DNA from: an uncultured bacterium
GTDB lineage: Bacteria; Zixibacteria; MSB-5A5; UBA10806
Direction: 5' to 3'
DNA length: 64,000 nt
Assembly (NCBI GenBank): GCA_965541585.1
Contig: CBEUCH010000015.1
Location: 1 to 64,000, forward strand
The translations under genes and the position numbers were made by a program. Every line of letters begins with the position of its first letter. Within the stretch, counting starts at the first letter, position 1. The notes beneath the pieces were generated by a model. That model made no database searches. It was not told the origin of the DNA and saw only the letters and a list, made by a program, of their open reading frames with translations. Positions 37,886 through 59,273 of this stretch are shown here, in pieces.

Positions 37886-40000
37886 CTATCTCGAAAGCAT
37901 TCTCTGTAGATATGTGTATTCAAGAGCATGTCTTTTCGCTCTCTGAGCGTTATCAGCCGATGCCGCATGCCCACCCTCCATTTCCTCGTAATAATAAACC
38001 TTATTTCCGAATTCCTCCATCCTGGCCGCCATTTTCCTGGCATGCCCCGGATGGACCCGGTCGTCCCAGGTGGAGGTCACGAATAATACGTCGGGGTAAT
38101 CAACTCCCTTTTTTAGGTTCTGATACGGAGAGTATCTGGCGATATATTCCCTCATCTCGGGTATATCGGGATCGCCGAATTCAGCCATCCACGATGCTCC
38201 CGGCGGAAGCTTGTGATATCTGAGCATATCCAATAGCGGCACTTGGCATACCACCGCGTTATAGAGATCGGGTCTCTGGGTCAATACTGCCCCGACCAGC
38301 AGTCCGCCGTTACTGCCGCCCATGATCCCCAGATGATCCGGCGATGTTATTTTTCGATTTATCAAATCCTCGGCGACGGCAATAAAATCATCGAAAGCGC
38401 GTTGCCTGTTTTCCAGAAGGGCTGCTTTATGCCATCTCGGCCCGAACTCCCCACCGCCTCTGATATTCGCCAACGCGAACACGCCTCCTGTTTCGAGCCA
38501 TAGCTTTCCTATCGTCGCCGAGTAAAACGGAGTTTGTGGATTTCTAAATCCCCCGTAACCGTAAAGCAGGGTAGGGTTGCCGCCGTCCGTTTCCAGATCC
38601 TTTGCCGAAACCAGAAAATATGGTATTACGGTACCATCCTTACTCAGAGTCTCGAGTTGACTTACTTTCAAGTTGTTGGCGTCGAACATGGGAGGGACCG
38701 ATTTGATCACTCTGGGTGTTTCCTTCGGATCGGAAAAAATGTATAGATTGCTTGGGATCAGAAAACTCGCGAACGAAATCATCAGCCTGTTATCGAATGC
38801 GCTATATGAACGTACCTTGACCGATCCGAAATCGGGAAGATTTATGGCGCCTCCTGTCCATTCGGGTTTCTCGGAAGAGCCTGCCAGCGAAAAATAACGG
38901 ACTTTACCTATCACGTTTTCAAGCAGGGATACGATTATATAATCCCTGGTGGGATGGACCGACCTGATCGTGCTCTTTTCATCCGGTCGGAATAAAACTT
39001 CAATGTCGGATTTGAGATCATCCGATTCGAGATCATCTATTTTTAATGCTATTAGAGAACCCTGCGTGATATCTAGCCAGTCGGAATGAAGAAGAACGAC
39101 AATATAACCTTTGAAAAAAGCCTCTATCGTGGCGTCTTTGGGGATCGGGATTTCGCGTTTTTCGAGATTTTCATCCAGAAGCCATTGAGTGGATTCCCAG
39201 AAGGATATATATCTGCCCACAGATACATATTTCCCCTCGGGTCTGTGCTCAATATACCCGTAGATAGAAACGTCCGTTTCCTCTCCTTCAAGAAGGGTTA
39301 TAGCCTCCGAAAGAGGCGTTCCTCGCTTCCATAATTTGGCGATCCTCGGATAGCCCGACGTTGTCAATGAACCGGGACCGAAATCGGTATCCACAATCAA
39401 ATTGTCATCATCGTACCAGGCCACAGTGCTTTTGGCCTCGGGAAGATAAAAGCCGTCGCCCACGAACGACTTAGTTTCATAATCAAACTCCCTGACAAAT
39501 ATGGCGTCCTTACCGCCTTCGGAGAAGTAAATCATGCATCTTGCATAATCGGGCGGTAAATTGGCCGTTCCCTTATAGACCCAGCTTCTTCCTTCTTTCT
39601 CATTGAGTTCGTCGATATCGAGGAGAATCTCCCATCGGGGATCTTTCTTCTGGTATTCTTCCAGGGTGGCTCTTCTTATGATCCCCCTGACGTGCTGGTC
39701 ATCCTGCCAGAAATTGTAAACGTATTCACCCTTAATAGTCCCATACGGTATCCTGTCTTTTGAATTTAGAATATTCAGAGCTTCATTTTGAAATTCCAGG
39801 AAATTGGGATCGTTGCCCAGATCATCCATTGTGGCCTTGTCATGCTCTGTTACCCATTTGAGGGGTCTTTCTCCTTCCACCTCTTCTAGCCAGATATAAG
39901 GATCATCATGCGTATCGATCGCGTCCTGCGCCGTCGGACAGGTATTCGGTTTAACTATGAATATAAATACAATAGAGGATAGGATTCTTAGAGCCTTCAT
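37886..40000 (-). CDS. Prolyl oligopeptidase (S9A), exported
   Basis: DPYIWLE, GGSNGG nucleophile, DDRVHP and GGH motifs. ATG at 40000 follows GGGAGAG (ORF track start 40138). Confidence 0.93.
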   Translation of the reverse strand: MKALRILSSIVFIFIVKPNTCPTAQDAIDTHDDPYIWLEEVEGERPLKWVTEHDKATMDDLGNDPNFLEFQNEALNILNSKDRIPYGTIKGEYVYNFWQDDQHVRGIIRRATLEEYQKKDPRWEILLDIDELNEKEGRSWVYKGTANLPPDYARCMIYFSEGGKDAIFVREFDYETKSFVGDGFYLPEAKSTVAWYDDDNLIVDTDFGPGSLTTSGYPRIAKLWKRGTPLSEAITLLEGEETDVSIYGYIEHRPEGKYVSVGRYISFWESTQWLLDENLEKREIPIPKDATIEAFFKGYIVVLLHSDWLDITQGSLIALKIDDLESDDLKSDIEVLFRPDEKSTIRSVHPTRDYIIVSLLENVIGKVRYFSLAGSSEKPEWTGGAINLPDFGSVKVRSYSAFDNRLMISFASFLIPSNLYIFSDPKETPRVIKSVPPMFDANNLKVSQLETLSKDGTVIPYFLVSAKDLETDGGNPTLLYGYGGFRNPQTPFYSATIGKLWLETGGVFALANIRGGGEFGPRWHKAALLENRQRAFDDFIAVAEDLINRKITSPDHLGIMGGSNGGLLVGAVLTQRPDLYNAVVCQVPLLDMLRYHKLPPGASWMAEFGDPDIPEMREYIARYSPYQNLKKGVDYPDVLFVTSTWDDRVHPGHARKMAARMEEFGNKVYYYEEMEGGHAASADNAQRAKRHALEYTYLQRMLSR

Positions 40001-40400
40001 AATCTCTCCCGGCATTGGTGCTTTAATCTTCCGATGATCATTCCAAGTTCGAAAAAACAGGGTAGCGACGATTATGTCAAGCGCAAAAGCCGCTCTTATA
40101 GTATCTTCAGGATTGTCGATAACTCTTGCAGAGAACAAAGGAGGAGCGAGGAAATGGAGGCTTGTTTCGAAGCAATTTTAAGAAAGCCGAAAGCGTCAAA
40201 CGGCCTCTAAATAACCGAAGTAAAGACGATCGATGATTCACATACTTTCTCCATCCAATGAGGATATTTCATGACCACCCCTGAATAGTTGCTCGTTTTT
40301 TTTACTCGGTTGCATTTCAAGAGCTTGCCGTGCCTGCAGAAAAAGTGAGAACTCACTTGTGTCTTTTTTATTATTATCGTAACTTAAAATGTAGATTATT

Positions 40401-40486
40401 GCCGGAATGGCGGAATAGGTAGACGCAAGGGACTTAAAATCCCTCGGTCCGTATGGACTGTGCCGGTTCGATTCCGGCTTCCGGCA
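40401..40486 (+). tRNA. tRNA-Leu(TAA), probable integration site
   Basis: GCCGGAA/TTCCGGC acceptor stem; aggga-CT-TAA-AA-tccct; long variable arm; GGTTCGATTCC. Confidence 0.97.
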
Positions 40487-40505
40487 TTATAAATCACTAC
40501 GAGTG

Positions 40506-40541
40506 AACGGGTTGCAAAATGTGCATCGCAACCCGTTTTTT
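40506..40541. terminator. Hairpin between tRNA-Leu and the integrase 3' end
   Basis: aacgggttgc...gcaacccgtt followed by a T-run. Confidence 0.7.
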
Positions 40542-40595
40542 GGTGGATTGTAGGCAAGTCCTACATGAGTCCACACTTTTTGCGGTTTTTACCAG

Positions 40596-41663
40596 TCAAT
40601 AAGGAAGTTTTGCCACCATGTCGGTCTTGTATTTTTCCGCAAGATGAGCGTATATTTCTGTGGTTTTGATGGAGGAATGACCCAATAGTTCCTTTATTGC
40701 GTATAGCGGCACTCCTGCCATCGCAAGATGTGAGGCATAGGAAAAACGTAGGGAATGGCAGCTAGCCCAGTCCAGGCCTATCGAGGAACAGGTCTTACTG
40801 ATTTTCCGGCTTACTGTATCGGGTTTCCATTGTGGGAGTTCCTTTCCTTTTTCATCCCGGGAACCAAAAACTTTATTGTCTTTTCTCCTTTGAAGTGAAC
40901 CAAGCATTTTCCCAAGACCACTTTTTTTATCAAACCCAAGGTATCTATACCTTCTACTCTTCGAATTTGACGCCCTTATTGTAATCTGGCATTTATTGAA
41001 ATCAATGTCATCCCAGGTTAATGATAAGGCCTCGCGAAGCCTAACGCCCGTCCATAAATAAAAATTCACAACATCTTGGAAAACAGTTCCTTCAAACGCT
41101 TCGCGTAACTTCTCAATTTCGTCTACTTCAAGATACTTTGGTCGAGGCGCACCTTGGCTCCGTAGCATTTTGATCCTTCTAAAAGGGCTCGTTTCCATTA
41201 GCCCCCAGCTAAGAGCGGTATTAAATATTGCCTTAAGATGACGAAGCTCTAGATTTACCGTCGATTCTGAAATATGTGAGTTTTTTCTATTTGACGGCTG
41301 GCTGAGTCTGTGTCTAACATAACCATCAACGAGGGCGCTATTGATTGTTTTCAATTCAACGTTTCCGATGTATTTCGCAAACAATCTCAATACTCTTTCT
41401 TCTCTGTTTAAAGTCGATGGCCTCTTTACAAGACTGCAGTGATTTAAATAATCACGCATAAAATCTTCGAGTAGAATATTCTCAAATTGCCCTACTGTAG
41501 ATTTGCCTTCAACAAGCTGGCTGCAAAACTTATGGTACTCTTTTTGAGCAGTCCGTTTATCAACTTCACCGATTGTTTTTAATTGATCTCTGCCATTCAA
41601 TCTGTAACGAATTACCCACACAGATCTCCCCGTCCTGTAATTTCTTTTTTGCAATGAGGCCAT
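40596..41663 (-). CDS. int: Tyrosine recombinase/integrase
   Basis: TGVRLRE (R), K, HSLR, LGHSSIKTTEIY; SAM-like domain; AAGGAGGTG RBS. Confidence 0.95.
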   Translation of the reverse strand: MASLQKRNYRTGRSVWVIRYRLNGRDQLKTIGEVDKRTAQKEYHKFCSQLVEGKSTVGQFENILLEDFMRDYLNHCSLVKRPSTLNREERVLRLFAKYIGNVELKTINSALVDGYVRHRLSQPSNRKNSHISESTVNLELRHLKAIFNTALSWGLMETSPFRRIKMLRSQGAPRPKYLEVDEIEKLREAFEGTVFQDVVNFYLWTGVRLREALSLTWDDIDFNKCQITIRASNSKSRRYRYLGFDKKSGLGKMLGSLQRRKDNKVFGSRDEKGKELPQWKPDTVSRKISKTCSSIGLDWASCHSLRFSYASHLAMAGVPLYAIKELLGHSSIKTTEIYAHLAEKYKTDMVAKLPY

Positions 41664-41684
41664 CAACACTCACCTCCTTTCCGG

Positions 41685-41912
41685 CTATTTGATAAAGTTG
41701 ATTTTTTGTTTGAATTCGTTTTCCTCGATGAAATGAACGACCTGGTCGTAGGTGAAACAGATTGAATTTCGGCCGTATCGAGTACAGGTGATCCGCCCGG
41801 ACTTTATCCAGCGAATGACCGTGTTATAGTGGACACCCAGGAGATCAGCCACCTCACGTAAGGTCTTGGTCAATTTACCGTCGGGCCAGGTGTTCATCTC
41901 CTTATACCTCAA
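41685..41912 (-). CDS. Excisionase-like HTH_17 DNA-binding protein
   Basis: TLREVADLLGVHYNTVIRWIKSGRI; directly upstream of int. Confidence 0.85.
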   Translation of the reverse strand: MRYKEMNTWPDGKLTKTLREVADLLGVHYNTVIRWIKSGRITCTRYGRNSICFTYDQVVHFIEENEFKQKINFIK

Positions 41913-41993
41913 AAATTAATCCCAAAATCACCTCCCGGCGAAAAATATAGCCCAAAAAAACACCGGGAGGCTTCGGAACGCCTACAAACGTTC

Positions 41994-42458
41994 CTACGTT
42001 TGACTGCCTGACGGACTATTTTTTAGTCCGTGGCCGAATTCGATGAACAATTTATTGGCATTGACCAGATGCTCAAACATGTCCCGCATATCGCCAATCA
42101 ATCTCTCAAGCGATTTTCCGATTTCATCAACCGATTCGAACCTATGCTCCTTAGCTATATGATGAGATAAATTCCCAATGATGATCGTCCATTCATGCAA
42201 AAAACCTCGAGTGAGAGATTCATAATTCTTCAGATCATCCAAGGATTGGAATTCTCTGGCTGAAGATGCGAGTTGATCCAGCCTGGGGAGGATGTAATCA
42301 GTATATGCTCGAACCGAGATATACGTTTCGCCATTTTTATCCTCCAGGGCATCCGCGTCAGCAAGGATGTCCATCGCAGCTCTGCGCTGACTATCATCAA
42401 GGCGGAGCGCTTTAAAATGGTCTTCCAACAGTACGTGGAAATCGCCTTTATCTTTCAT
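41994..42458 (-). CDS. Hypothetical helical protein (paralog of 42552-43043)
   Basis: GGAGG RBS; shares the ADAL..N...YIS...Y...EW...H pattern with its neighbour. Confidence 0.75.
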   Translation of the reverse strand: MKDKGDFHVLLEDHFKALRLDDSQRRAAMDILADADALEDKNGETYISVRAYTDYILPRLDQLASSAREFQSLDDLKNYESLTRGFLHEWTIIIGNLSHHIAKEHRFESVDEIGKSLERLIGDMRDMFEHLVNANKLFIEFGHGLKNSPSGSQT

Positions 42459-42551
42459 TGTTTTACCTCCATTTTTGGTTTGTAAGAATGTCAGCGTTTT
42501 TTTAGGGTCGCCCTAGTCGCCGCAATAAAGACGGCGACTAGAGCAGTAAGG

Positions 42552-43043
42552 TTATTCGCATTCATGCAAGTTATGGCCTTCCGCGTAAGCCCTTAGGATC
42601 TCATCCGACGGAGGTGGGGCACCCATATCAAAGAGGATTTTGTGGCTGGATATGCAATGGTCGACCAGGCTTTTCAACTCAGAATTTACGGTCACCCACG
42701 CCTGAAAAAGGTCGCTCCTGATGGCACTATTACGTGGATCAACCGCCATGTTCATTATATCCACGCCGAATAACATCCATTCCTTCACCAGCTTGGCCGC
42801 CAGCGACGCATAAAAACTGTAGTCCTCCTCGGTCTGCGACTCAACTGCCATATTCTCCAATCCACTTAGGGCGTCATGCATAAATGTTGAATAGGTCTTG
42901 AATGAAATGTATTCGATTTCGTTTTCTTGGGATAAGGCGTCAGCTTTATCGAATACGGCACGGATTGATTTACGGCAATTGTCGCATTTTCCTTTAGTGT
43001 GGAGATCAAAAGGGATTAAGACGTCTTTTTCTAATCTTGTCAT
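42552..43043 (-). CDS. Hypothetical helical protein (paralog of 41994-42458)
   Basis: Start MTRLEK at 43043 follows GAAAGG; colinear similarity to its neighbour. Confidence 0.75.
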   Translation of the reverse strand: MTRLEKDVLIPFDLHTKGKCDNCRKSIRAVFDKADALSQENEIEYISFKTYSTFMHDALSGLENMAVESQTEEDYSFYASLAAKLVKEWMLFGVDIMNMAVDPRNSAIRSDLFQAWVTVNSELKSLVDHCISSHKILFDMGAPPPSDEILRAYAEGHNLHECE

Positions 43044-43117
43044 TTTTTTCCTTTCATTTTTGTACCCGGTCGCCTCATAGTGGTGGCGACAGGAACCTGA
43101 TCGCATTCAAGTGCAAA

Positions 43118-43987
43118 TCAGACATCGTACATCGTGCCAGGGCCAACAAACCTTACCCTGATTTCCTTTATCCTTTCTCCCCAGCCTTCTACCTCACCGA
43201 TCAAAGCTTCGACGTCGTAAGCACCATCGCCGAGCCCAGCTGGGATCAGAACCGCAATTCCTTCTCCTATCTGGTAGCCTCTCTTAAAGCCATCCACAAT
43301 CTCTTGTATTGGATGGATATCACTGTGGAAATGACATGGATCGAAGACCATGACATACCCGCTATCAACATTAATCTGGCCAATCGTGGTCCACATGTCC
43401 TCTACGGCTGTCTCCTTGTTCGTTGTCGCAGATACCGGTTCTCCTCCAGAGTGATATTTTTTCGCTGTTCCTTCACGCTTCCTGTTCTCAAGGAAGGAAT
43501 CGACCCGTTTTTTCTCCTCGGGGATGAGCTTTCCAAGACGATCCTCAGCCTCTTCTAATGTCTTCAGATCTGCATCGAGCTCGCCATAAACATCGCGGTA
43601 TTCATGAGCGAGATCCAGCCGCTTACCAGGGTCATCTTCCTGTAGCATCTTGCTGAAGGTTTCTTTTAGCTTAATTTCTTTTAACAAGGATAGGGTGGCC
43701 AATCGATAAGTAATGCCTCGAAGTTTACCGATGGAATTGATCGTATTAACTATTTTGGACGGCTCGATAATTCCCCTGCCAGTCTGCCCTGGGGACTTGA
43801 GTTCGCCCAGCTGTCCCAGAAGTAGGGACGATAAACGTATGTAATTGTTCTCGCCTATTCTGATAAGAGCGTCGTGAATTGAGGCTTGGATCTCCAGGGT
43901 TTTCTGATCAATGCCAGATACATTGGAGTAAGCTTCTGCCAACACGAGGTCGCCGAAAACATCAAGTAGTTTGTTTTGATTTTCCAT
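43118..43987 (-). CDS. Hypothetical protein with C-terminal DUF4241-like domain
   Basis: IGQINVDSGYVMVFDP...GLGDGAYDV motif; AGGAG RBS. Confidence 0.65.
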   Translation of the reverse strand: MENQNKLLDVFGDLVLAEAYSNVSGIDQKTLEIQASIHDALIRIGENNYIRLSSLLLGQLGELKSPGQTGRGIIEPSKIVNTINSIGKLRGITYRLATLSLLKEIKLKETFSKMLQEDDPGKRLDLAHEYRDVYGELDADLKTLEEAEDRLGKLIPEEKKRVDSFLENRKREGTAKKYHSGGEPVSATTNKETAVEDMWTTIGQINVDSGYVMVFDPCHFHSDIHPIQEIVDGFKRGYQIGEGIAVLIPAGLGDGAYDVEALIGEVEGWGERIKEIRVRFVGPGTMYDV

Positions 43988-44059
43988 TTATTTCGTTCTC
44001 CTATTTTTATGCCCGGCGCCGGATGGAACGGCGACGCGGGCGTTAATGGTCAACAGTTA

Positions 44060-44599
44060 CTACTTGACTGGCTCGGCGACAGGTGTCGCTCCTTCTTCCG
44101 GACCTCCATCCTCGGCAGAGTCGTTAGCTTCCAAATCGTCAAGCATCGCTCTTCGCTCAGCCTGTACGCGTTTCAAACCCTGCGTGGCATCTTCGAGATT
44201 CTTGCGGTGGCGTTCAAGATCGGTCTCCAATGTGCTTTTCTCCCCGCGTAAACTGTAGATCTCGTCATCGGAGGTAGCGTCTTTAAGCAAGGCTTCGATT
44301 GCTTTTAGCCTCCGCTCTTTCTTCTTAATGATGTCAGGCAATCTTTTCAGATTCGATTTGAGGATGCCGATCTGTTTGGTATCCGCCAAGGTCTTGCCGG
44401 TCTTCGAGCGTTCGCTTACTTTGGAATTGAATGCCCTCAGAACGTTGGCATCCCACTCCTCCAGGCAGATATGTGGCGCCCCGGCATACTCGAAGAGAAT
44501 ACCGGCTTTCGATGCCTCCTCGGTCACTTTATCAACATCAGAATATTCCCGAAGTTCGGCCAACTGTTGAATTGTTAAAATTGTCTTTGGGGATTTCAA
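44060..44599 (-). CDS. Hypothetical protein, HTH-like N-terminus plus coiled coil
   Basis: TTG start after AGGAGG; LTIQQLAEL N-terminus; heptad-rich C-terminal half. Confidence 0.7.
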   Translation of the reverse strand: MKSPKTILTIQQLAELREYSDVDKVTEEASKAGILFEYAGAPHICLEEWDANVLRAFNSKVSERSKTGKTLADTKQIGILKSNLKRLPDIIKKKERRLKAIEALLKDATSDDEIYSLRGEKSTLETDLERHRKNLEDATQGLKRVQAERRAMLDDLEANDSAEDGGPEEGATPVAEPVK

Positions 44600-44978
44600 A
44601 GAAAACCTCCTATGATAAAAGTTAAATTTTCATTATCTCATCTACTTGATAGTAGAAACGGGTTGTAGTGGGGTTCCTCCTTTCAGTCAGCATTCATTGA
44701 CGATTAATTGGTCCATCCTTAATAATGTGACCGGTCACGAAAGCTCGACTCCTTCCCTGATAATTTCAAAACCTCCGAGATTCACAGGGGCAATCGTTCC
44801 ATCAGCGCTTGCACATTCTTCTAACTAAAAAATTATCGGGGTTCACAAAATATAATGGATGATGTAAGCCACTATCTTGTGCTATAAACACTTAGAGAGA
44901 AAAAATAATTATAAAAAAAAAGATAATATTTTATTTGTATTATTGGAGGCTAATTACGGAGAGATAAACTACAAAATA

Positions 44979-46877
44979 TCAGCGATCAGAGCGCCGATAA
45001 ATCTTAAATATTGAACAATAATAACCCATATCCCTATCGCATTCTATTAGATTTTCTTCTATTTTGAAAAAATGGCGCAATCGCTCATTTGTTTCTGAAA
45101 TGTTTACTATTAAAGTGGCATCAGTCTTCTTATAATGTAATATTCCGTTACTATCAGCCAGCTTACCCAGCACCTCTTCGTAAGGCCTAATTGAATTTCT
45201 TTTTGATTTTATATTCTGAAAACCCATCTCCTTAAACGTTCTAATTTCTGTTGGATGCTTTTTCCTAACATCATTGATATCAAATTTACATGAATCGTCT
45301 GCGAAACCAACTACAAGCTGCTTCCATTCAATTCCGGGTGGCAATATAAATGGGATTATTGAATCAATCGCTTCTTGTGGGATAGACGGTTTTTTCTCTT
45401 TGGCTTTTTGTTCTCTATCTATTAATAAACTATCTGGAAGTTCAGTCAAAGTGTTTTCATTATCATCAGCGAGGAGTACTGTTCGTTCAATTACTGACCG
45501 CAGTTCCCTTATGTTGCCCTCTTTCCAGCTGTGTAATTTTAGTTTCTTTAATAGATCTTTGGAAACTTTCCGGATATTTTTCCTGAATTGTTTCGAGAAT
45601 TCAGCAATAAACAGGTTAACAAACTTTTCAATATCGTCGCTTCTTTCTCTTAAAGGAGGTATATGTATCTCATAAGTATTTATCCGATGATAAAAATCCT
45701 CTCTCATAATGTTATTATCTATTAAGTGACGTGGTTTTTTGCTCAATGTCATAACTATTTTAATATCTGTTTTTATACTCTTGGTAAAGCCCTGTTCCTG
45801 TATTTCCCCCTTATCTAAAAACCTCAGCATCTTTCCCTGAAAATCATAAGGCATATCATTGACATTATCTAAAAATACTGTCCCTTTATCAGCCTGTTCA
45901 AAGATGCCCTTTTGATTGTGTATCCCTTCCAAAAAAGGTCTATTCTTGGCGCCGAATAGATAATACTCGAATGCAGCATTTGCAATCTCGGAGCAGTAAA
46001 CAACATAGAACGGTTCCCTGTTTCTATTACTTTTGCCATGAAAATAGCGCGCAATAACATCTTTTCCGGTTCCGGGCTCACCGTTAAGTAATATGATTTT
46101 TGCTTCATCATACTTAGCGATTTTTTCAACCTCTGATAAAACATTCTTAAAATTTGGAGCATCCCCGATTATAGTGAAAGGCTGATCAGCTATTTTCATA
46201 ATTGCCGGTTTTGCCTGGTCAACATATGTCTGAATATTCCCGACGAGATCAGAATAACTGTCCGTATCTCCGAGAATATTAGCATACTTTTCACCAAGCC
46301 GGGCGAATGGGATTTCCTCAAGAGCGATATCGGCATTCTCACCCTTCCGCGGATAGAAATAATCTGGTGTCATGATGCCCTCGGGGTGTCGAAGGTAATA
46401 AAGATGATCTTGTTTTCTGCCTAATATTGTTAAGGCGAGTCCCAAATAAACGGACATTATTCTTCTTCCGCCCGCATATATACAGTGTAATTCTGTATCG
46501 GGGTCTTTTGTCAAGTTCCTAAGTAAATTCGCAATTTTATTCGCGGTCATTTCAAATTGTTCTGGAGTCTTTATATCATCCTGGATATTTCCTTTCTCAT
46601 CTTCAATCATATAGATATCTTCTTCAGTAAATTTGGGGAATGTTTTATATTCCGCGCAAAACTTGCTGAAGACTTTGTTTTCGCCGAGTAAAGGGGGCAT
46701 ACCTGTTCTAGGATTACCCATAAAGAGTTCGTCCCTGCCAATTGATGTTGTGATTAAGACTATTCTTTCAATATCGATGGGTCGCGGCCGTTTTCGGGTT
46801 CTAAAATACCAAAGCGACAGTGTTATAACGTTAGGGATGTTACCGAAGACGCCAAATAGCAAGTGCATCTTTTTCAT
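44979..46877 (-). CDS. NE0113/Crn1-type CARF + degenerate sigma54-activator AAA+ + putative wHTH fusion
   Basis: FG..PNVIT...ITTSIG...DDIKT...HCIYAGGRRIMS...QDHLYY...IPFARL (Cas_NE0113 pattern); GEPGTGKDVIARYFH, ADKGTVFLD, REDFYHRI, IPPLRER and W.GNIRELRSVIER (bEBP pattern). Confidence 0.85.
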   Translation of the reverse strand: MKKMHLLFGVFGNIPNVITLSLWYFRTRKRPRPIDIERIVLITTSIGRDELFMGNPRTGMPPLLGENKVFSKFCAEYKTFPKFTEEDIYMIEDEKGNIQDDIKTPEQFEMTANKIANLLRNLTKDPDTELHCIYAGGRRIMSVYLGLALTILGRKQDHLYYLRHPEGIMTPDYFYPRKGENADIALEEIPFARLGEKYANILGDTDSYSDLVGNIQTYVDQAKPAIMKIADQPFTIIGDAPNFKNVLSEVEKIAKYDEAKIILLNGEPGTGKDVIARYFHGKSNRNREPFYVVYCSEIANAAFEYYLFGAKNRPFLEGIHNQKGIFEQADKGTVFLDNVNDMPYDFQGKMLRFLDKGEIQEQGFTKSIKTDIKIVMTLSKKPRHLIDNNIMREDFYHRINTYEIHIPPLRERSDDIEKFVNLFIAEFSKQFRKNIRKVSKDLLKKLKLHSWKEGNIRELRSVIERTVLLADDNENTLTELPDSLLIDREQKAKEKKPSIPQEAIDSIIPFILPPGIEWKQLVVGFADDSCKFDINDVRKKHPTEIRTFKEMGFQNIKSKRNSIRPYEEVLGKLADSNGILHYKKTDATLIVNISETNERLRHFFKIEENLIECDRDMGYYCSIFKIYRRSDR

Positions 46878-47461
46878 GTTTGGCTCTCCTTAAAAATGCT
46901 CCACGTACCTTGAATGTGATATCTGCCTCTGATCTATTCTACATTTTCAATCGGGCGAGATCGCCTTTTCTAATCGCAAATTCATTTTAGCTCAAATCAG
47001 TAAGATTGTAAAGCGGATCTCGTAACGCTAAGTGTCTGATTCATCAAACTCTCCATTTATCGTATTAGAATAGCGCTTTTATGGCTTATTTCTAACGATT
47101 CTGTGGCCAATGCGATTTATTATTTGCGTCACTATCATGTTTCTTCCCCCTCGTTTTTATGGCACCACGGCAAAGGCCTCTGAGGCGCAATCGCCAGCCG
47201 GTTTGCCATAGTATCCGCCGTTAACTCGATACGACTGATTTGCAATTCTATGTCTGCCAATGGCTTATGTTTGCTGCATCGGGGTCCGAAACCAACCCGA
47301 CCATCTACCAACGACTTATGGGGATCGACGGGTGGCCCCAGAGTGCCTCCGAAATTTCAAACCGCTCAGGGACGATTTTGGGCCGTCTTCTCGTGACATC
47401 GAAATTCCATAAAATCTACACTAAATCGAGCTAGCGGGAAGAAGAAAAAGTAAAAAAACAT

Positions 47462-47490
47462 TTGACAAAGCTACAATGTTTTAGTATAAT
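47462..47490 (+). promoter_or_regulatory. Perfect consensus sigma70 promoter, leaderless transcript predicted
   Basis: TTGACA(47462-67)-17 bp-TATAAT(47485-90); ATG at 47497 with no RBS. Confidence 0.85.
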
Positions 47491-47496
47491 TAGTAT

Positions 47497-47943
47497 ATGA
47501 AAGAAACCCCTGATTTGAAATCGCTCCGTCTGGCGCAAAAGCTAACCTTGGCCGAAGTGGCACTACGCATGGACGTTTCCAAAGGTTTTGTATGCCATCT
47601 GGAGAACGGAATCAGAAGACTAAACGATGATCTGACCAAGCGGCTGGCAGCGGCTCTGGACTGTCCGGAAAACGAGGTATGGAAAGCCAGCCAACGTTCT
47701 GGCGAAAAGAATACGATTTCCAATAGCTGGATCTCTCAGGTAAGGATCAATGGCTATCCAGTTTTCGATGCTTTCAAGTATCATCTTGAAGCGAAGAAGA
47801 AAAAACCTGATGTCAGAAATAGGGCAAGGCTCAGAAAACAGCTCGCACAATTCATAAGTGAGAACCTGCCGTTTTCGGTGATGGCTGAACTTTCAGAGAA
47901 TGACATATTGCTGGACCAGGTTGTTGAGCACTGCAAAAAGTAA
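47497..47943 (+). CDS. XRE-family HTH regulator
   Basis: LKSLRLAQKLTLAEVALRMDVSKGFVCHLENG. Confidence 0.9.
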   Translation: MKETPDLKSLRLAQKLTLAEVALRMDVSKGFVCHLENGIRRLNDDLTKRLAAALDCPENEVWKASQRSGEKNTISNSWISQVRINGYPVFDAFKYHLEAKKKKPDVRNRARLRKQLAQFISENLPFSVMAELSENDILLDQVVEHCKK

Positions 47944-48067
47944 CCTCTAGCCAATTCCACTACATCCAAACATTGAAATCATGGAAGGCCAGCTTGGCTG
48001 GTTGATGATTGATTGAAACTAACCAGAGAGCCTCATCATTGGGGCGCTCGAAACCAAACAATAAATT

Positions 48068-48295
48068 ATGAATACAAAAGACATGAACTACGCAGCATAT
48101 TTGCTGGCGAATAATCAAAAATTAGAAAACTGCTATGCTGAAGGACGCCGATTCTGGTTTGTGTTTTCGGATGATAAGGTTATTAATACGCTTGAAGAGC
48201 AGTATTATATGAATACTGGGGCTATTAAACCTCAGCACTTTATTAACGCGCAGAAAATATTGAAAAATCTGATAAGAAACTTCCGACCAGTATAG
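48068..48295 (+). CDS. DUF5659-like small phage/MGE protein
   Basis: T.D...AAYL....KL.......FWFVF pattern; precedes the replication gene. Confidence 0.6.
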   Translation: MNTKDMNYAAYLLANNQKLENCYAEGRRFWFVFSDDKVINTLEEQYYMNTGAIKPQHFINAQKILKNLIRNFRPV

Positions 48296-48360
48296 GTAGC
48301 GAAATATGAATATGAACACTTGGAATATTAAAAACGAGTCATGCCATGACTTAGCCCTGA

Positions 48361-50886
48361 ATGTTTTGGGGCTTGAATATGAAGACTTTATCCAATTTAA
48401 TTATTATGAACAGAAGTCTAATTTACGAGATTTTTTCACAACTTCAGGAAGGAGAGTACATCAGGTTAGCCTGGGAAGATAAAAATGAAGAGTTTCACTG
48501 GCAAGGAATAGACAACTATGAACAATTTATAGCGAAAGTTAATGAATTAAGATCCAATCCCCATATAGCCAGTATCTGGTTTACGCCTCATCCGAGCAAT
48601 TCGGAAACATCCCATGAAAACGACAACGTTAAACATGTTCAATGGGTTTATGTCGATATCGATGATATTTCGACCGAAGATTTTATAAAGAACTACAATT
48701 TCATAAGACCAACATATATTATTGCTACAGGTCACGGCGTTCAGCTTTATTGGCAGTTGAAGCAGCGTATAGCAGCACCTTTTGATGAATGGCGTTATGT
48801 CGAAAAGGCCATAGAGAAAAAGCTTAATGGAGAAAAAGGTTACCCTTGTGCTTTGCTTCGCGTTCCCGATACACCCAACAGAAAACATCTCATCGAGAAA
48901 CATCGCAAAAAGGGATATACAGTAGAAACCGATTGCAAGGTCATTGAATTTAATGATGTTGCCTACGGCCTTGATGATTTCATACAGGCCGGTTTGAAAA
49001 TCAACGCTAAACCTGCTCCTACTATTCAAAGTAATGAATCTAAGCTGACAATCTCCGATCTAACGTGTATTCGTCAACACTGCGCTGCCGTAGACTCGGC
49101 GTTTAAATCTATTGAAAATGACTCGGATAATGATAAAACGGCCGGTCACAATAAGCGTCTAACCGCTGCCAGCATCATAAAGCATACCGTTGATGATGAA
49201 GATTATGTGTTAAAGCTGTTCGGTAACACTGCTGATTTTAAAAAGGATGTCACGCTAAAGAACTATCAAAGTATAAAACAAAAACCAATCACTTGTAGGC
49301 AATTGCAGGAATGGAATCTTTGCTTCAAACCTTGCCAACTGATCCAAGACCTGAACAAGAAAAGCCCTATAGTATTTGCCTACCGCAAAGGAGTTCAGCT
49401 TAAGCGGACTAACGAATTATTAAGCGACACTGAAAACGATGCCTGTTTTGAAGAACTTATGAAGCGGGCCAAAACAGTAGAAAATCCCGTTAATCAGTTA
49501 AAACTTATCAACAGAATACAGGCTACAACCGGATTGAATAAAGCGGAAATCAGCCATTATATGCGTCGGGTCAAGGTTTTCGATGAATTAAATTCATATA
49601 TAGTCAATGCCCAAGTGGATCCTGTAAGAGCGGCAAAATACATAATCAAAAAATATCAACTGATGCGTTTTCAACAGGACTTTTATCAATTTGATGACGG
49701 CATATGGGAGCATAAACCGCAGGAAGAAACCGAATCACTTATTCATCACGAAATTGAAAAATACTCGGACAACCATACAATCAGCGAAGTCATTAACGCC
49801 GTAAAACGCGAATCATTGATTACACATATACAAGTTGAGGATGCCCAGGATACTTATGTGATCGCGGCCGGTAACGGCTTATTAGATGTTCGTAATGACT
49901 CGCTTCGAGATTTTAAACCCGAAGATTATAGATTTGGGAAAATGGGTGCTGGTTATAATCCCGATGCCGATTGTCCGGCATTTAAGGATTTCATTAAAGA
50001 GCTGTTTCTTTTTGATGTTGACGCGTCAGATAAAAGGCTATTGGTGCAGGAGATATTTGGATATCTTTTAATCCCTGATTATACTTTGATAAAAAAGATG
50101 TTTTATTTCTACGGCCCTAAAGCCAACAACGGCAAATCCAGCCTAATTGAAATCATCCGATCGATTATGGGACCGGGCTACTTTGACAGCGTTCCTATGG
50201 ATAAAATGAATGGTTTTCTGTTAAAACGCCTAATGGGAAAACATGCAAACGTCGTAGGAGATCAGGATGCTTACACTAAAGTTCCTGATGGAGTATTGAA
50301 ACAGCTTATTGGCGGCATGGACGAAATTACCGCAGATGTGAAGTATAAAGATGCAATTAGCTTTATCAATCATGCCAGGCTGATATTCGCAGTAAACAAA
50401 CTCCCATATTCTGAAGCGAAGGATGAGGGATACTTTACCAGGGCGGTTATTCTAACATTCAACAATCAATTTCTTATTAATCCAGACAAGAAGGATCCGC
50501 GGCAGATGAAAGCTGATATTGAAAAGATACAGTACATAAAGGATAACGAAAAGGAGGGCATCCTAAATTGGATGCTGGAAGGTTTGAAAAGGCTATTGGT
50601 AAATAAGAAATTGACAATCCCGGCAACTTCGGCAACTGCCTTGAAGGACTACAAAACGAACAATAACAGCATATTACTATTTGTTAGTGATAGATGTCAG
50701 CTTGGATCATCATTTGAAGTGAGTCAATCTGAGTTGTATACCGATTATAAGGCATGGTGCTTAGATCAGGGATTTAAATTCTATGCAAATGCAATTACTT
50801 TCTGTGATCTACTTGAGCGGGAGTATAACGTAGCCCGCCAGAGGAATAAAAATTCACGACAGCTGTTAGGAATTCAAATGGCATAA
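48361..50886 (+). CDS. AEP primase / PriL-like domain / D5-SF3 helicase (P4-family primase-helicase)
   Basis: YVDIDD, TGHGVQLYW and LLRVP.T.N.K motifs; Cys cluster; GNGLLD; Walker A YGPKANNGKS; KQLIGG, VKYK, N.LP. Start may be 48379 or 48406. Confidence 0.9.
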   Translation: MFWGLNMKTLSNLIIMNRSLIYEIFSQLQEGEYIRLAWEDKNEEFHWQGIDNYEQFIAKVNELRSNPHIASIWFTPHPSNSETSHENDNVKHVQWVYVDIDDISTEDFIKNYNFIRPTYIIATGHGVQLYWQLKQRIAAPFDEWRYVEKAIEKKLNGEKGYPCALLRVPDTPNRKHLIEKHRKKGYTVETDCKVIEFNDVAYGLDDFIQAGLKINAKPAPTIQSNESKLTISDLTCIRQHCAAVDSAFKSIENDSDNDKTAGHNKRLTAASIIKHTVDDEDYVLKLFGNTADFKKDVTLKNYQSIKQKPITCRQLQEWNLCFKPCQLIQDLNKKSPIVFAYRKGVQLKRTNELLSDTENDACFEELMKRAKTVENPVNQLKLINRIQATTGLNKAEISHYMRRVKVFDELNSYIVNAQVDPVRAAKYIIKKYQLMRFQQDFYQFDDGIWEHKPQEETESLIHHEIEKYSDNHTISEVINAVKRESLITHIQVEDAQDTYVIAAGNGLLDVRNDSLRDFKPEDYRFGKMGAGYNPDADCPAFKDFIKELFLFDVDASDKRLLVQEIFGYLLIPDYTLIKKMFYFYGPKANNGKSSLIEIIRSIMGPGYFDSVPMDKMNGFLLKRLMGKHANVVGDQDAYTKVPDGVLKQLIGGMDEITADVKYKDAISFINHARLIFAVNKLPYSEAKDEGYFTRAVILTFNNQFLINPDKKDPRQMKADIEKIQYIKDNEKEGILNWMLEGLKRLLVNKKLTIPATSATALKDYKTNNNSILLFVSDRCQLGSSFEVSQSELYTDYKAWCLDQGFKFYANAITFCDLLEREYNVARQRNKNSRQLLGIQMA

Positions 50887-50887
50887 T

Positions 50888-51122
50888 TGTCACCTTTGTC
50901 ACCCTCTGTCACCGCCTAAGTCGTTGTGTAACAAGAGAAATGACAAAATGACAAGAAAATAGCCTAGAAAAGTATTACAGGAAAATTGATAGACACACAA
51001 ATACAGGAGAATAGTTTTTTACGGTCATTTTTGTCACCCGGGCACTAAAAAGTTGTTAACTTGCTGCATATCAATTGATTGCGGCGAAAAAACAGGGTGA
51101 CAAAAAGGTGACAAAGGTGACA
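50888..51122. repeat. Iteron-like origin of replication
   Basis: TGTCACC at 50888, 50897, 50907 and 51032; inverted GGTGACA at 51096, 51107 and 51116; TGACA at 50941 and 50949; AT-rich core; IHF consensus TATCAA-TTGA-TTG at 51069-51081. Confidence 0.8.
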
Positions 51123-51132
51123 GAAATATATC

Positions 51133-51327
51133 ATGACGTACAGAAAGAAATTCATACCCGAAGCTAATCTGAGGAAGATAATAAAACATCCAAACCATCC
51201 AAGACTTGATAACGAAGAGAAACCTAAACCACAATATGAGGACGGTAGTGGTTTCTTGGCCGAGATGCGCCAGCTTGACTTTGCAGCTGACGAAGCCCTC
51301 AAATCCCACGCGGCGACTACAAGTTAA
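51133..51327 (+). CDS. Small hypothetical protein
   Basis: ORF only, same strand as its neighbours. Confidence 0.35.
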   Translation: MTYRKKFIPEANLRKIIKHPNHPRLDNEEKPKPQYEDGSGFLAEMRQLDFAADEALKSHAATTS

Positions 51328-51422
51328 GGGGGGTACACGCCATTAACCAGAGAATATTAGAAGAACACTTATGAAATAATATCCAAGCAGGTAATGTTCA
51401 ACAATTTAACCAGCAATAAATA

Positions 51423-51905
51423 ATGCTAATAAACCATAACGGCATCATATGCCACATATCAAAAATAGACCAGCCTCACAGGATCTGGTACCATATTTGG
51501 GTAGACCTTGAAAGATACGGGGAAGACTATATACGCGAAAAGTTCGGCGTAACAGATCCCAGAATCCAGCGTAAAATACAGGACGAGTTTTATCGCGCCG
51601 TCATATCCTATAGGTCGAAGCCGACCGAGATATTGGAGGAGCATGCCCTTCGGCTGGATAAAACGGATTACCCATTCTATTTGACCGATAAAACCAAGGA
51701 TTCAGTTACGGTATTTATGGAGAAAGGACTATTTACGTTGTATCCTGGTCAGCCAAACGGCATGGATCGGCCTCCTAATGGATATCCCTGGGCGATCATC
51801 TATAACACCGACACACCTGAAATCATCCAAGCCAAGTTGTATGATCACAGGAAGCGGTTTGGCCCAGCTATGCGAAAGAAGCTCTGGAAAGTCTGCGGTT
51901 GGTAG
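51423..51905 (+). CDS. Hypothetical protein
   Basis: 160-aa ORF followed by a terminator. Confidence 0.65.
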   Translation: MLINHNGIICHISKIDQPHRIWYHIWVDLERYGEDYIREKFGVTDPRIQRKIQDEFYRAVISYRSKPTEILEEHALRLDKTDYPFYLTDKTKDSVTVFMEKGLFTLYPGQPNGMDRPPNGYPWAIIYNTDTPEIIQAKLYDHRKRFGPAMRKKLWKVCGW

Positions 51906-51919
51906 CCCAACCTCCACCC

Positions 51920-51950
51920 CGCCCCTGCCTTTTGGTGGGGGCGTTTTTTT
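51920..51950 (+). terminator. Rho-independent terminator closing the replication module
   Basis: cgcccctgcc-tttt-ggtgggggcg followed by T7. Confidence 0.8.
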
Positions 51951-52051
51951 ATTGCCCGGTATCAAAAACAGCTTGCATAAGACTATAGCCGAGTATAACT
52001 TGGATTATTAACATACGTTAACCCCATTTTGCGAGGGCTAAGATAGATAAT

Positions 52052-53602
52052 ATGGCGAAAAAGGATATCAAAAAGAATTCCGAAAGTTTCGAAAAAACAC
52101 TATTTAAAGCAGCGGACAAATTAAGAAAAAACATAGACGCGGCTGAGTATAAGCATATTGTACTCGGCCTTATTTTTTTGAAGTATATTTCTGACTCATT
52201 TGAGGAATTACACATAAACCTCCTGGCAGGCAAAGGCGAATACAAAGGAGCCGATCCTGAAGATGCCGATGAATACCGTGCTGAGAATGTCTTCTGGGTT
52301 CCCAAGGTTGCTCGCTGGTCGCATCTTCACTCACGAGCCAAACAGCCAACTATCGGAAAAGATGTTGACGATGCAATGGAGGCAATCGAAAAAGAGAACA
52401 AGACCCTCAAAGGTATCCTCCCCAAAGTTTTCGCCAAACCAAATCTCGACAAGACTTCATTAGGTGGGCTGATTGACATGATCGGCAACATTGCTCTTGG
52501 TGATGAGGCTTCAAAGAGCAAAGATATACTTGGTCGAGTCTATGAGTATTTTCTTGGCGAATTTGCTTTGGCAGAAGGCAAGAAAGGCGGACAGTTCTTT
52601 ACTCCCAAGTCAATCGTCCAGACTATGGTCGAAATGATCGCACCCTACAAGGGCAGGGTATTTGACCCCTGCTGTGGTTCTGGCGGAATGTTTGTAATGA
52701 GTGAGAAGTTCGTTGCCAGCCATAAAGGTAAGGTCAACGATATTTCCATATACGGTCAGGAAAGCAACCAGACTACTTATCGCTTGTGCAGAATGAACCT
52801 GGCATTGCGTGGCATCGATGGCTCGCAGGTTAAGTGGAACAATGAAGGCTCCTTTCTAAAGGATGAACACAGGGACTTGAAGGCCGATTTCATTCTGGCT
52901 AATCCGCCATTCAATGATAGTGACTGGAGCGGTCAACTCCTGAGAAAAGACCCTCGTTGGCAGTACGGCGCACCACCCACTGGGAATGCCAACTATGCGT
53001 GGATGCAACACATGATTTATCATTTGTCCCCAAAAGGGATTATGGGATTGGTGCTTGCCAATGGGTCGCTCTCTTCGAATACATCTGGCGAAGGGGACAT
53101 CCGTAATAGTATTATAGGTGCTGACTTGGTGGATTGCATTGTCGCTCTGCCAAAGAATCTTTTCTATAACGTCACTATTCCTGCGTGCCTTTGGTTTCTT
53201 TCCCGTAAACGGACAGGCAATGGTAATAGGAAACGCTCGGGCGAGATTCTTTTCATAGATGCTACCGAAGTAGGCCACATGATTGATCGCACTCATCGGG
53301 TGTTTACCGATGAGGATGTGTTGAGACTTGCCAACACCTACCATGAGTGGAGAAAAGAGAATGGCAACTATGAAGATATCAAGGGCTTTTGCAAATCTGC
53401 CGCACTCAAGAACGTAGAAAAGCACAAATTCGTCCTCACACCAGGGCGTTATGTCGGCATTCCCGACGAAGAAGATGACGGTATTCCTTTTGATGAAAAG
53501 ATGAAATCGCTTACTGGTGAATTGGCCCAACAAATGTCAGACGAAAAGCGGCTCGATAGTGAGATACAGAAGCAGCTAAAGAATGTCGGGTATAACATTT
53601 AG
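52052..53602 (+). CDS. hsdM: Type I R-M methyltransferase (m6A)
   Basis: [24 protein letters not shown] and LTPGRYVG motifs. Confidence 0.96.
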
Positions 53603-53622
53603 CCGAGAACTAACTTGAGGTT

Positions 53623-54486: not shown

Positions 54487-54491
54487 CAATT

Positions 54492-55661: not shown

Positions 55662-55676
55662 AAGGAGGGAATCAAA

Positions 55677-56042: not shown

Positions 56043-56050
56043 TAAGAAAC

Positions 56051-59173: not shown

Positions 59174-59273
59174 ATGTCAGGAATTTATTTATGAATATTT
59201 TGAACCAAACATAACTTGAAGTCCACGAGCAGAAGATAAAAACAAAATAGGCGAGGTTTGGGGGGAATGACAT

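Follow-up and report, generated by a model that had tools for sequence, protein, structure and literature searches.

An island-borne CARF–AAA+ protein of a Zixibacteria genome, a predicted sigma-54-independent relative of CRISPR-linked activators

The DNA analysed here, referred to as the window, is a stretch of 64,000 nucleotides (contig CBEUCH010000015.1 of assembly GCA_965541585.1, positions 1 to 64,000, forward strand) from an uncultured bacterium of the Zixibacteria lineage MSB-5A5, UBA10806. It contains part of a genomic island in which one gene encodes P0001, a protein that joins an N-terminal CARF domain to a AAA+ core of the kind found in bacterial enhancer-binding proteins (bEBPs), and to a C-terminal domain that may bind DNA. 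The frame starts with ATG, 8 nt downstream of a strong Shine-Dalgarno sequence, AAGGAG. Residues 15-186 match the Pfam family Cas_NE0113 (PF09623; E 2.5e-18, 67.1 bits against a cut-off of 23), P0001 scores 96.9 bits with NCBIfam TIGR02584 (cut-off 80.65), and residues 5-231 match the PADLOC CARF5 models with E about 1e-39. The full 168-position profile of Pfam Sigma54_activat (PF00158) aligns to residues 236-405 (E 1.8e-42) and AAA_lid_14 to residues 410-495 (E 1e-18), and the solved structures of NtrC1 and PspF are matched by the AAA+ part at E 1e-46 to 1e-30. Neither the Fis helix-turn-helix (HTH; PF02954), which three relatives possess, unlike P0001, nor any other Pfam family was found in residues 496-632. 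A sequence-only reading of the locus had described this architecture, with a C-terminal domain other than a Fis HTH, and both families that it had named, PF09623 and PF00158, were recovered. The Cas_NE0113 motifs to which it had pointed are all present in the translation (GNIPNVIT at 12-19, ITT at 42-44, DDI at 100-102, AGGRRIMS at 135-142, QDHLYY at 156-161 and IPF at 189-191).

Proteins with this composition are few. In a search of a 5.8-billion-protein index, in which the best 120 of 1922 matches were examined for domain content, PF09623 and PF00158 were combined in 7 proteins including the query, and the CARF part alone retrieved 5 proteins of like length and 1 shorter fragment. The CARF gene is present in 2 of the 285 species genomes of the host phylum. 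No relative of the CARF domain was found among IMG/VR viral contigs; the matches in INPHARED phages concern only the AAA+ part of generic bEBPs, none of them covering the CARF domain, and PLSDB plasmids gave only ordinary NE0113 genes annotated 'csm6', the NCBI name for the NE0113 family being 'ring nuclease Csm6'.

Alignment and a motif check over 13 loci (numbered L, their proteins P) separate two forms of the protein. The canonical form has 559-573 residues, the GAFTGA motif, a Walker B motif that reads FLDE and a Fis-type HTH. The window-type form, represented by P0001, P0002 (the protein of L001 and L022), P0003 and P0005, has 632-674 residues, no GAFTGA, FLDN or FLDD as Walker B, and a different C-terminal domain of about 135 residues. 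GAFTGA is found in all 10 canonical relatives and in none of the 3 loci of the window type. In P0001, NRPFLEGI stands at its position and Walker B is FLDN (D337-N338), the Glu of the canonical FLDE being lost, while Walker A (GEPGTGKD) and the arginine-rich sensor region are kept. In bEBPs, the GAFTGA loop contacts sigma-54 and the Asp-Glu pair of Walker B serves ATP hydrolysis. By analogy, P0001 would be unable to contact sigma-54 in the usual manner, and its hydrolysis of ATP should be poor. Given that Walker A and the arginine region are kept, the core probably still binds ATP and oligomerises.

The sequence-only reading had proposed structure prediction for each domain, and the AlphaFold model of residues 1-230 (predicted local distance difference test, pLDDT, 84) does retrieve solved CARF domains. 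Foldseek places Cad1 at the top (9c77, E 3e-5), followed by Can2, Sis0455, Cam1, Csm6, Csa3 and Card1; 19 PDB chains reach E <= 1e-3 and, among the matches listed, all are CARF proteins. A PDB sequence search with the CARF part alone returned nothing meaningful, and a profile search yielded weak hits only, Sis0455 at E 0.05 among them. The best PADLOC models belong to CARF5, the Cad1 clade, and not to CARF7. The sequence-only reading had called the domain Crn1-like, which is incorrect, because Crn1 belongs to CARF7/CARF_m13 (PMC12409355, PMC9638899).

Among 15 aligned CARF sequences, G12, P15, T19, T43, T44, D101, H131, G136, G137 and R138 are invariant. Motif I of P0001 is GNIP and motif II is GGRR (residues 136-139), which places a basic residue in the pocket after strand 4. 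Two patterns divide the alignment: G-x-[ST]-P with GGRK in all nine sequences that fall outside the island clade, most of them cas-linked, and G-x-[IVK]-P with GGRR in all six that belong to it, the GAFTGA-bearing P0004 included. In a profile alignment to Sis0455, which is weak (E 0.05), T10-S11 fall opposite the two residues that precede P15, and G-G-R105-K106 opposite G136-R139 of P0001; judging from the DD segment, D75 of Sis0455 probably lies opposite D101. D75, R105 and K106 are needed by Sis0455 for binding cyclic tetraadenylate (cA4), and K106 for its cleavage; a catalytic role belongs to the motif-I Ser of the larger Crn1 enzymes, Sis0811 and Sso1393 (PMC9638899). The CARF domains of the CARF5 clade (Cad1) bind cA4 or cyclic hexaadenylate (cA6), and for TaqCad1 and cA4 the apparent Kd is about 7 nM (PMC12669630, PMC12825302). 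Our reading of these residues is that the island-clade CARF domain may have kept the binding pocket and lost ring-nuclease chemistry. This would fit a pure sensor, and argues against an anti-CRISPR ring nuclease.

The C-terminal domain is rare, with 17 proteins at E <= 1e-3 among 1.84 billion representatives. Two of the 15 further carriers have a degenerate sigma-54 AAA+ domain and 13 have no Pfam family. P0122 (293 residues) and P0123 (448 residues) carry it at 82% and 74% identity on other, unrelated N-termini, and P0128-P0136 at 23-40% identity at the end of short proteins (78-318 residues) without known family. As P0122 and P0123 join it to other N-termini, the domain is, by its distribution, a portable module. 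Its AlphaFold model (pLDDT 94.8, predicted template modelling score 0.88) is built of three strands, a helix, a strand, a long helix and a three-stranded sheet. The domain has no PHROGs family and no named protein Atlas cluster at 0.9 or above, and a PDB sequence search with the C-terminal part alone gave nothing meaningful. In an exhaustive comparison with VIA-align, most of the first 30 places go to OmpR/PhoB-type DNA-binding domains (Z 5.7-4, where the tool itself cautions that values below 8 can reflect a common arrangement), and 75-85 residues superpose at 2.8-3.6 Å. BaeR, VanR, AdeR, CadC, PrrA, VicR, GlnR, KdpE, PmrA, PhoP, OmpR, CpxR and ToxR are among the proteins matched. Since the domain stands where relatives carry the Fis HTH, it is plausible, on the model, that it binds DNA.

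The relatives of P0001 indicate where such a protein may have come from. Genome and metagenome collections scanned with a CARF-only alignment gave 9 and 24 loci. Those at about 40-45% CARF identity, in Kryptonia and Bacteroidota metagenome-assembled genomes (MAGs) and related metagenome contigs, share one arrangement: cas6, cas10, csm2-5, a Cas_APE2256 gene, the CARF-bEBP gene, a spacer, a gene of 111 codons, and a type I operon composed of cas8-like, cas7, cas5, cas3, cas4, cas1 and cas2 genes. The spacer after the canonical gene measures about 300-430 bp, and in L026, as far as its sequence extends, 581 bp. The order of csm genes followed by the CARF-bEBP gene is found in L004, L005, L006, L008, L023, L025, L026 and L028; L007 and L027 are partial and the csm part is missing in L003. 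The cas4, cas1 and cas2 genes are reached in L006, L007, L023 and L025, where the sequence extends far enough. Two of these loci also encode a second bEBP-related protein of about 420 residues (L023:1173-2432 and L025:4694-5959; BLASTP identity 36-37%), located either within the csm operon or upstream of it.

Each of the 10 homologues examined, whose CARF identity is about 40-57%, has GAFTGA, FLDE and a C-terminus of the Fis type. In the stretch 87-146 nt past the stop codon, 9 of the 10 GAFTGA-bearing loci, L002 among them, have a -24/-12 motif with a score of 19 of 23 or higher, an example being TGGCATAGTGTTTGCA (L006:11802-11817) in the hybrid locus L006:2537-20099; the exception is L003, with a score of 16. 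A strong motif of this kind is present in the hybrid loci L004, L006, L007, L023, L025, L026 and L028. The GAFTGA-less loci (the window, L001 and L022) score 15, which is background, and none of the three reaches 19. Scores of at least 19 occur in about 1.5% of shuffled regions, and 0.04 times per 370 nt of the host genome. L002 branches apart from the other GAFTGA-bearing loci. We infer that the canonical proteins are activators that respond to cyclic oligoadenylate (cOA) and act with sigma-54 on the adjacent type I operon; the hybrid loci point to an induction of type I interference and adaptation genes by type III signalling. The literature searched describes none of these CARF-bEBPs, the CARF classification of Makarova et al. 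2020 lying outside its reach. The proposal of the sequence-only reading that P0001 senses cOA gains from relatives (about 40% CARF identity) directly behind csm operons, and from the invariance of the CARF binding residues. Homologues are not confined to cas operons, as the L001 and L002 element types share island synteny.

L001, which encodes P0002, comes from a Zixibacteria MAG, and L002, which encodes P0004, from a Bacteroidales MAG. The window, L001 and L002 have a common core formed by the regulator, a spacer of about 375 bp and a protein of 173-181 residues, together with divergent DUF5659 and DUF5906 primase genes; an XRE gene occurs in L001 and the window, and no XRE open reading frame (ORF) was found in L002. 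L002 has lost neither GAFTGA and FLDE nor the Fis HTH, and its sigma-54 motif (TGGCACGCTTCATGCT) is strong. Because it is island-borne and yet has GAFTGA and the sigma-54 motif, L002 looks like an intermediate, captured by the island and not yet rewired.

In L001, L022 and L039, the gene of a 270-residue protein, P0138, lies 23 bp upstream of the regulator and in the same direction. P0138 contains the motifs DIDNLG and SGEELF and aligns to palm-2 of a Kryptonia Cas10 (BLASTP E 2e-4, 117 residues). It has no significant Pfam match; its nearest Atlas clusters are the GGDEF, mCpol, Cas10-palm and GTP cyclohydrolase III families, and the 10 best named-family Atlas matches all share family or clan. 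Structure matches to GGDEF cyclases have template modelling scores of 0.5-0.6, from a poor model. Because the Cas10-palm-like P0138 adjoins the regulator, the L001-type element looks like a self-contained pair of cyclase and sensor.

When the gene of P0001 is compared with its orthologue (window 44979-46877 and L001:6154-8058), the ratio of nonsynonymous to synonymous substitution rates (dN/dS) is 0.21 overall, 0.07 in the CARF domain, 0.16 in the AAA+ core and 0.31 in the C-terminal domain. The gene is maintained and not decaying, and all three domains are under purifying selection. Synonymous divergence is saturated in the CARF part, 0.26 in the AAA+ part and 0.55 in the C-terminal part; nucleotide identity is 67%, 92.5% and 80%, respectively, and 60% in the next gene. 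From this unequal divergence, the gene therefore appears to be a recombination mosaic, the sensor part of which was exchanged or has diverged, by these values, far longer than the core.

The positions of the features are collected in Table 1. The gene order given by the sequence-only reading, with a leftward block ending in xis and int and diverging from the XRE and primase genes, is correct. Its statement that the regulator gene heads that block is too simple: a terminator-like hairpin at 44977-44999 overlaps the regulator stop codon, and a spacer of 379 bp precedes the next gene. The spacer is 78% identical to that of L001 at the nucleotide level. Within a conserved block shared with L001, 44660-44790 (-), the palindrome GTGACCGGTCAC is accompanied, at a distance of about 39 nt, by a second inverted repeat, GTCA...TGAC; the block could be an operator or an RNA structure, and an Rfam scan of 40000-52000 found tRNA only. 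The -24/-12 motif is absent from 44600-44978, where the best score, 15 of 23, is background. A sigma-54 candidate picked by eye, TGGAACGATTGCC, was rejected for its spacing, which does not fit. The promoter scan of the divergent region gives a promoter-like site for the regulator at 47012-46984 (-), TTTACA-17-TAAAAT. Positions 47462-47490 (+) read TTGACA-17-TATAAT, a perfect promoter that stops 6 nt short of the XRE ATG, so that XRE mRNA made from it would have no leader or almost none.

The 179-residue partner protein is 47-49% identical to the products of L001:8435-8980 and L002:12064-12585, and has no family match beyond weak ones to SMC-like coiled coils. No Pfam, NCBIfam or PADLOC family and no PDB sequence match were found for the neighbours of 289, 184 and 154 residues. 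The 289-residue protein matches one PHROG of unknown function (phrog_5209, E 1.4e-8). Those of 154 (41994-42458) and 184 residues (42552-43106) resemble paralogues, both being helical and having similar segments, such as ISVRAYTDY / ISFKTYSTF.

Table 1. Features of the island regulator and its surroundings (positions in the window unless a locus is named)
Feature	Position	Strand	Evidence
P0001 gene (CARF, AAA+, C-terminal domain; 632 aa)	44979..46877	-	ORF call, translation, Pfam/NCBIfam/PADLOC
CARF sensor domain, residues 5-231, Cas_NE0113/CARF5 clade	46185..46865	-	PADLOC, Pfam PF09623, AlphaFold, Foldseek
Sigma-54-type AAA+ core and lid, residues 236-495	45393..46172	-	Pfam PF00158 and PF25601, alignment, motif check
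C-terminal domain of 137 aa, residues 496-632, candidate DNA-binding output	44982..45392	-	17 carriers, AlphaFold, VIA-align
P0138, cyclase-like gene, 270 aa	L001:5319-6131; L022:3-692; L039:200-1012	same direction as regulator	motifs, BLASTP
tRNA-Leu(taa), island integration site	40400-40487	+	ARAGORN
Tyrosine integrase (int)	40596-41669	-	Pfam
HTH_17 excisionase-like gene (xis)	41685-41912	-	Pfam
Three co-directional genes of 289, 184 and 154 aa between partner gene and xis	41994..43987	-	ORFs
Coiled-coil partner protein, 179 aa	44060..44599	-	conserved downstream gene in all three island contexts
Spacer of 379 bp between regulator and partner gene, candidate regulated promoter	44600..44978	-	sequence, L001 alignment, scans
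Divergent control region between regulator and XRE gene	46878..47496	.	promoter scan, sequence
XRE repressor-like gene	47497-47943	+	Pfam
DUF5659 gene	48068-48295	+	Pfam
P4/D5-type primase-helicase	48361-50886	+	Pfam; NCBIfam TIGR01613, 174 bits against a cut-off of 108.7

Farther to the right, 52052-62862 holds a type I restriction-modification (R-M) system with hsdM, an unassigned gene of 287 codons, hsdS, a zinc-ribbon gene of 121 codons that matches PDC-M14A, and hsdR. It is followed by an 830-residue AAA_13 protein (PDC-S06; PrrC-like, E 2e-15) and by a GIY-YIG/RAMA protein (PDC-S14), a layout of R-M and AAA_13 genes that recalls the prr anticodon-nuclease arrangement. Further defence-type genes occur in the island beyond the window. 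As the sequence-only reading had stated, there is no cas gene, here among the 25 window ORFs scanned, and no CRISPR-like array in the window, whose 3 tandem repeats all lie elsewhere; nor is rtcAB adjacent, rtcB being on contig C9. No att repeat was found inside contig C15. Copies of the tRNA-Leu 3' end occur only on contig C3, as a perfect copy of 56 bp (C3:6803-6858) and, 2.5 kb before it, as an 81% copy of the tRNA end with the integrase-side flank (C3:4144-4334). They probably represent attR and the scar of a second, decayed element. With attR candidates only on C3, the island would therefore be at least 46 kb long. The term satellite-like, used in the sequence-only reading, is supported by the integrase, the HTH_17 gene and the P4-family primase, and opposed by the length of at least 46 kb, the richness in defence genes, the lack of any capsid-related gene seen and the lack of an IMG/VR relative.

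The host genome, 98.2% complete at 3.52 Mb in 40 contigs, encodes rpoN and an rtcB that is unlinked to the island, and no second NE0113 CARF. In the phylum, Cas10 is matched in 20 of 285 genomes at E <= 1e-3, 14 of them above the cut-off. The genome of L001 has a Cas10 with an intact GGDD motif, and that of L002 has none. The earlier suggestion that an alarm signal of the host is the input finds no source in this genome, which has neither Cas10 nor a CD-NTase. Because no known signal generator is present, P0001 is probably an orphan sensor in its current host, in the ligand-free state.

By its sequence relationships, P0001 is derived from a putatively cOA-sensing sigma-54 activator of hybrid type III-A/type I CRISPR loci. 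We give an even chance to the reading that it is now a ligand-gated transcription factor, independent of sigma-54, built from a cyclic-oligoadenylate sensor and controlling the leftward operon. The anatomy, ancestry, losses and selection on which this model is built are observed; the ligand, the DNA target, the sign of regulation and the extent of the operon are inferred. A CARF dimer would bind cyclic oligoadenylate, or an oligoadenylate ending in 2',3'-cyclic phosphate, without degrading it, and the ligand would alter the ATP-dependent oligomeric state of a AAA+ ring impaired in hydrolysis. The C-terminal domain would bind the conserved 379-bp spacer at 44600-44978, and possibly also the divergent region, so as to switch a housekeeping-sigma promoter of the leftward operon, which would include the partner, the three unassigned genes, xis and int; switching would perhaps reach as far as xis-int. 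The signal would be produced by a Cas10 of the host into which the island has moved, or, as in L001, by a Cas10-palm-like cyclase carried on the island itself. Doubtful, in our estimate, is the fuller claim, taken as a whole, that P0001 is the master regulator of the island, a repurposed type III alarm sensor that drives excision through xis-int and four cargo genes in response to cOA, supplied by the Cas10 of the host or, in a sister element, by a minimal Cas10-like cyclase of its own, and that it does so by a sigma-54-independent, non-hydrolysing AAA+ switch with a new DNA-binding domain. If true, this would be the first mobile element to wire an immune second messenger directly into a life-cycle decision.

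Several observations weigh against such a ligand-gated transcription factor. The host genome gave no match to the profiles of Cas10 palm-2, Cas1, SMODS (CD-NTase) or mCpol, and Cas10 is present in only one of the three island hosts with a genome. There is no trace of the cyclase gene P0138 in the window, the host genome or L002, and about 280 bp of non-homologous DNA stand at its position in the window. The residue equivalences in the pocket depend on the weak alignment to Sis0455 (E 0.05), and the replacements in motif I and of Lys by Arg could reflect another ligand and not lost cleavage. Neither Foldseek, queried with the C-terminal model (E <= 1e-3), nor Pfam Trans_reg_C gives a match for residues 496-632; the resemblance to OmpR is weak, with Z below 8 and two long helices where OmpR has three. 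The winged HTH proposed in the sequence-only reading is in this way moderately supported by the OmpR/PhoB winged helices ranked by VIA-align, and is not recovered by Foldseek or Pfam. Repeats and k-mers common to both control regions, in the window and in L001, revealed no convincing operator, and the extension of the operon through xis-int is drawn from gene spacing only. In addition, the sigma-54 motif count overstates independence, because several of the loci are close kin.

Other functions can be considered for P0001. It could sense RNA damage in the manner of RtcR, the CARF domain binding RNA fragments terminated by a 2',3'-cyclic phosphate and switching island genes on with no cOA involved; the fragments would be tRNA halves produced by the PrrC/RloC-like ATPase of the island beside the R-M genes, or by phage attack. 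RtcR, itself a CARF-bEBP, has been reported to respond to such tRNA halves (PMC7790460, PMC10159003), RtcR-like CARF-AAA+-HTH proteins adjoin R-M systems (Makarova et al. 2014, PMC4012209), and A2>P also activates TaqCad1 (PMC12669630). The island has a type I R-M system and the AAA_13 protein with its PrrC match (E 2e-15), the host is without every known generator of cOA or cyclic oligonucleotides searched for, and the best PADLOC model for the AAA+ part is RtcR_PspF2 (E 1.9e-62), matched at that model's AAA+ positions only. We nevertheless regard an RNA-damage sensor as unlikely. The NE0113/CARF5 type to which the CARF domain belongs is not that of RtcR, whose models (RtcR and RtcR_PspF) match the AAA+ part only, and the domain has retained basic residues after strand 4, which are mostly missing in RtcR (PMC4012209). 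Relatives of P0001 are embedded in type III loci, rtcB is unlinked, and whether a PrrC-like gene travels with the regulator cannot be read from the short L001 and L002 contigs. It seems very unlikely that the protein is an anti-CRISPR, in which the CARF domain, as a ring nuclease or a sponge, destroys or soaks up cOA and blunts type III immunity of the host. All 6 island-clade sequences have replaced the catalytic motif-I Ser/Thr and the motif-II Lys, while the 9 others retain both; this also disfavours the ring-nuclease quenching that the sequence-only reading had offered as an option. Some 400 residues of AAA+ and output domain under purifying selection would be superfluous for that job, and a type III system is missing from the host. 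Ring nucleases encoded by mobile elements are known to serve as anti-CRISPRs (PMC12409355, PMC13148439), the CARF5 member TaqCad1 degrades cA4 (PMC12669630), and P0001 keeps the binding residues in a family that NCBI labels 'ring nuclease Csm6'; known stand-alone ring nucleases are, however, small, the limit of one survey being 250 residues (PMC12409355).

A ligand-activated effector, in which the AAA+ ring and the C-terminal domain remodel or sequester a protein or nucleic-acid target with no binding to a promoter, would agree with the modest fold match of that domain, its occurrence on varied N-termini and the fruitless search for an operator; most CARF proteins are effectors (PMC4012209). 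Sustained ATP-driven remodelling is unlikely, though, with the Walker B Glu lost. The domain occupies exactly the position of the Fis HTH of relatives, its top structural matches are nearly all DNA-binding domains, and the gene is placed at the divergent control point of the island beside XRE; we consider an effector quite unlikely. P0001 might, lastly, be a decaying orphan, a captured CRISPR regulator whose partners are lost and whose function is gone, as could be thought from the loss of GAFTGA, the Walker B Glu and the Fis HTH and from a genome without a signal generator. This is highly improbable given an intact frame of 632 codons with a strong ribosome-binding site, dN/dS values of 0.07-0.31 across the domains, and the same derived features in P0002, P0003 and P0005 from other sources, the HTH having been swapped for another folded domain and not deleted.

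CARF domains are known mainly as switches of suicide or dormancy effectors, and few have transcriptional outputs (Csa3, RtcR and the protease-sigma route of CalpL). The csm- and type I-linked CARF-bEBPs (L003-L008, L023-L028) share with P0001 the CARF clade, the AAA+ family and the layout of a spacer followed by an operon. They differ in keeping GAFTGA, the Walker B DE, the Fis HTH, the motif-I Ser/Thr, GGRK and the sigma-54 motif, all of which P0001 has lost, and in belonging to cas loci, whereas P0001 is on an island. Csa3, from type I-A/III loci, responds to cA4. It combines a CARF domain with a winged-helix output that regulates transcription, as P0001 may do, and its structure 2wte is among the Foldseek matches; unlike P0001, it lacks an AAA+ core, comes from a different CARF clade and is found in cas loci. 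Cad1, a CARF-adenosine deaminase, is of the same CARF5 clade and is the best structural match, but its output is a deaminase and not a AAA+ and candidate DNA-binding module. TaqCad1 cleaves cA4 and needs Lys106 of motif II to bind it, where P0001 has Arg at the equivalent position in a weak alignment. RtcR resembles P0001 in its CARF sensor and bEBP core, and its DNA-binding end has a candidate counterpart in P0001; it is a case of CARF gating of transcription outside CRISPR (PMC4012209, PMC7790460). It differs by a divergent CARF domain that mostly lacks the basic residue after strand 4, by the sigma-54 route and by its place beside rtcBA; P0001 scores 176 bits with the RtcR equivalog NF038308 (cut-off 650), over residues 235-496 only.

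TyrR and the NtrC of Rhodobacter are relatives of bEBPs that lack GAFTGA and act with housekeeping sigma factors. PexR is another such protein (PMC12754779). As predicted for P0001, the AAA+ core of these proteins is an ATP-binding oligomerisation module without contact to sigma-54, but they sense through ACT/PAS or receiver domains and end in Fis-type HTHs as outputs. To our knowledge, no GAFTGA-less bEBP relative has a CARF sensor. Pairs of an mCpol cyclase and a sensor, with a membrane or nuclease effector as partner, are reportedly described by Burroughs et al. 2015 and for Panoptes. The L001 pair is alike in joining a Cas10-palm-like cyclase to a CARF protein, 23 bp apart, and its partner is a predicted transcription factor. 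CARF-gated transcription (RtcR, Csa3) and GAFTGA-less bEBPs are thus already known, separately; in the literature searched we found no island protein in which a CARF5 domain without ring-nuclease residues is joined to an AAA+ core blind to sigma-54 and to a novel output domain.

Taken together, the comparisons make plausible a path of three steps, in which a cOA-sensing sigma-54 activator located between type III and type I operons was captured by an island and gave rise to a rewired form. In the last step, the contact with sigma-54, ATP hydrolysis, the ring-nuclease residues and the Fis HTH would have been dropped, and a new output domain gained. If the ligand is confirmed, P0001 would be a compact cOA-responsive transcription factor with no need for sigma-54, and mobile elements would eavesdrop on immune signalling, or run a private circuit of cyclase and sensor, in timing their own expression.

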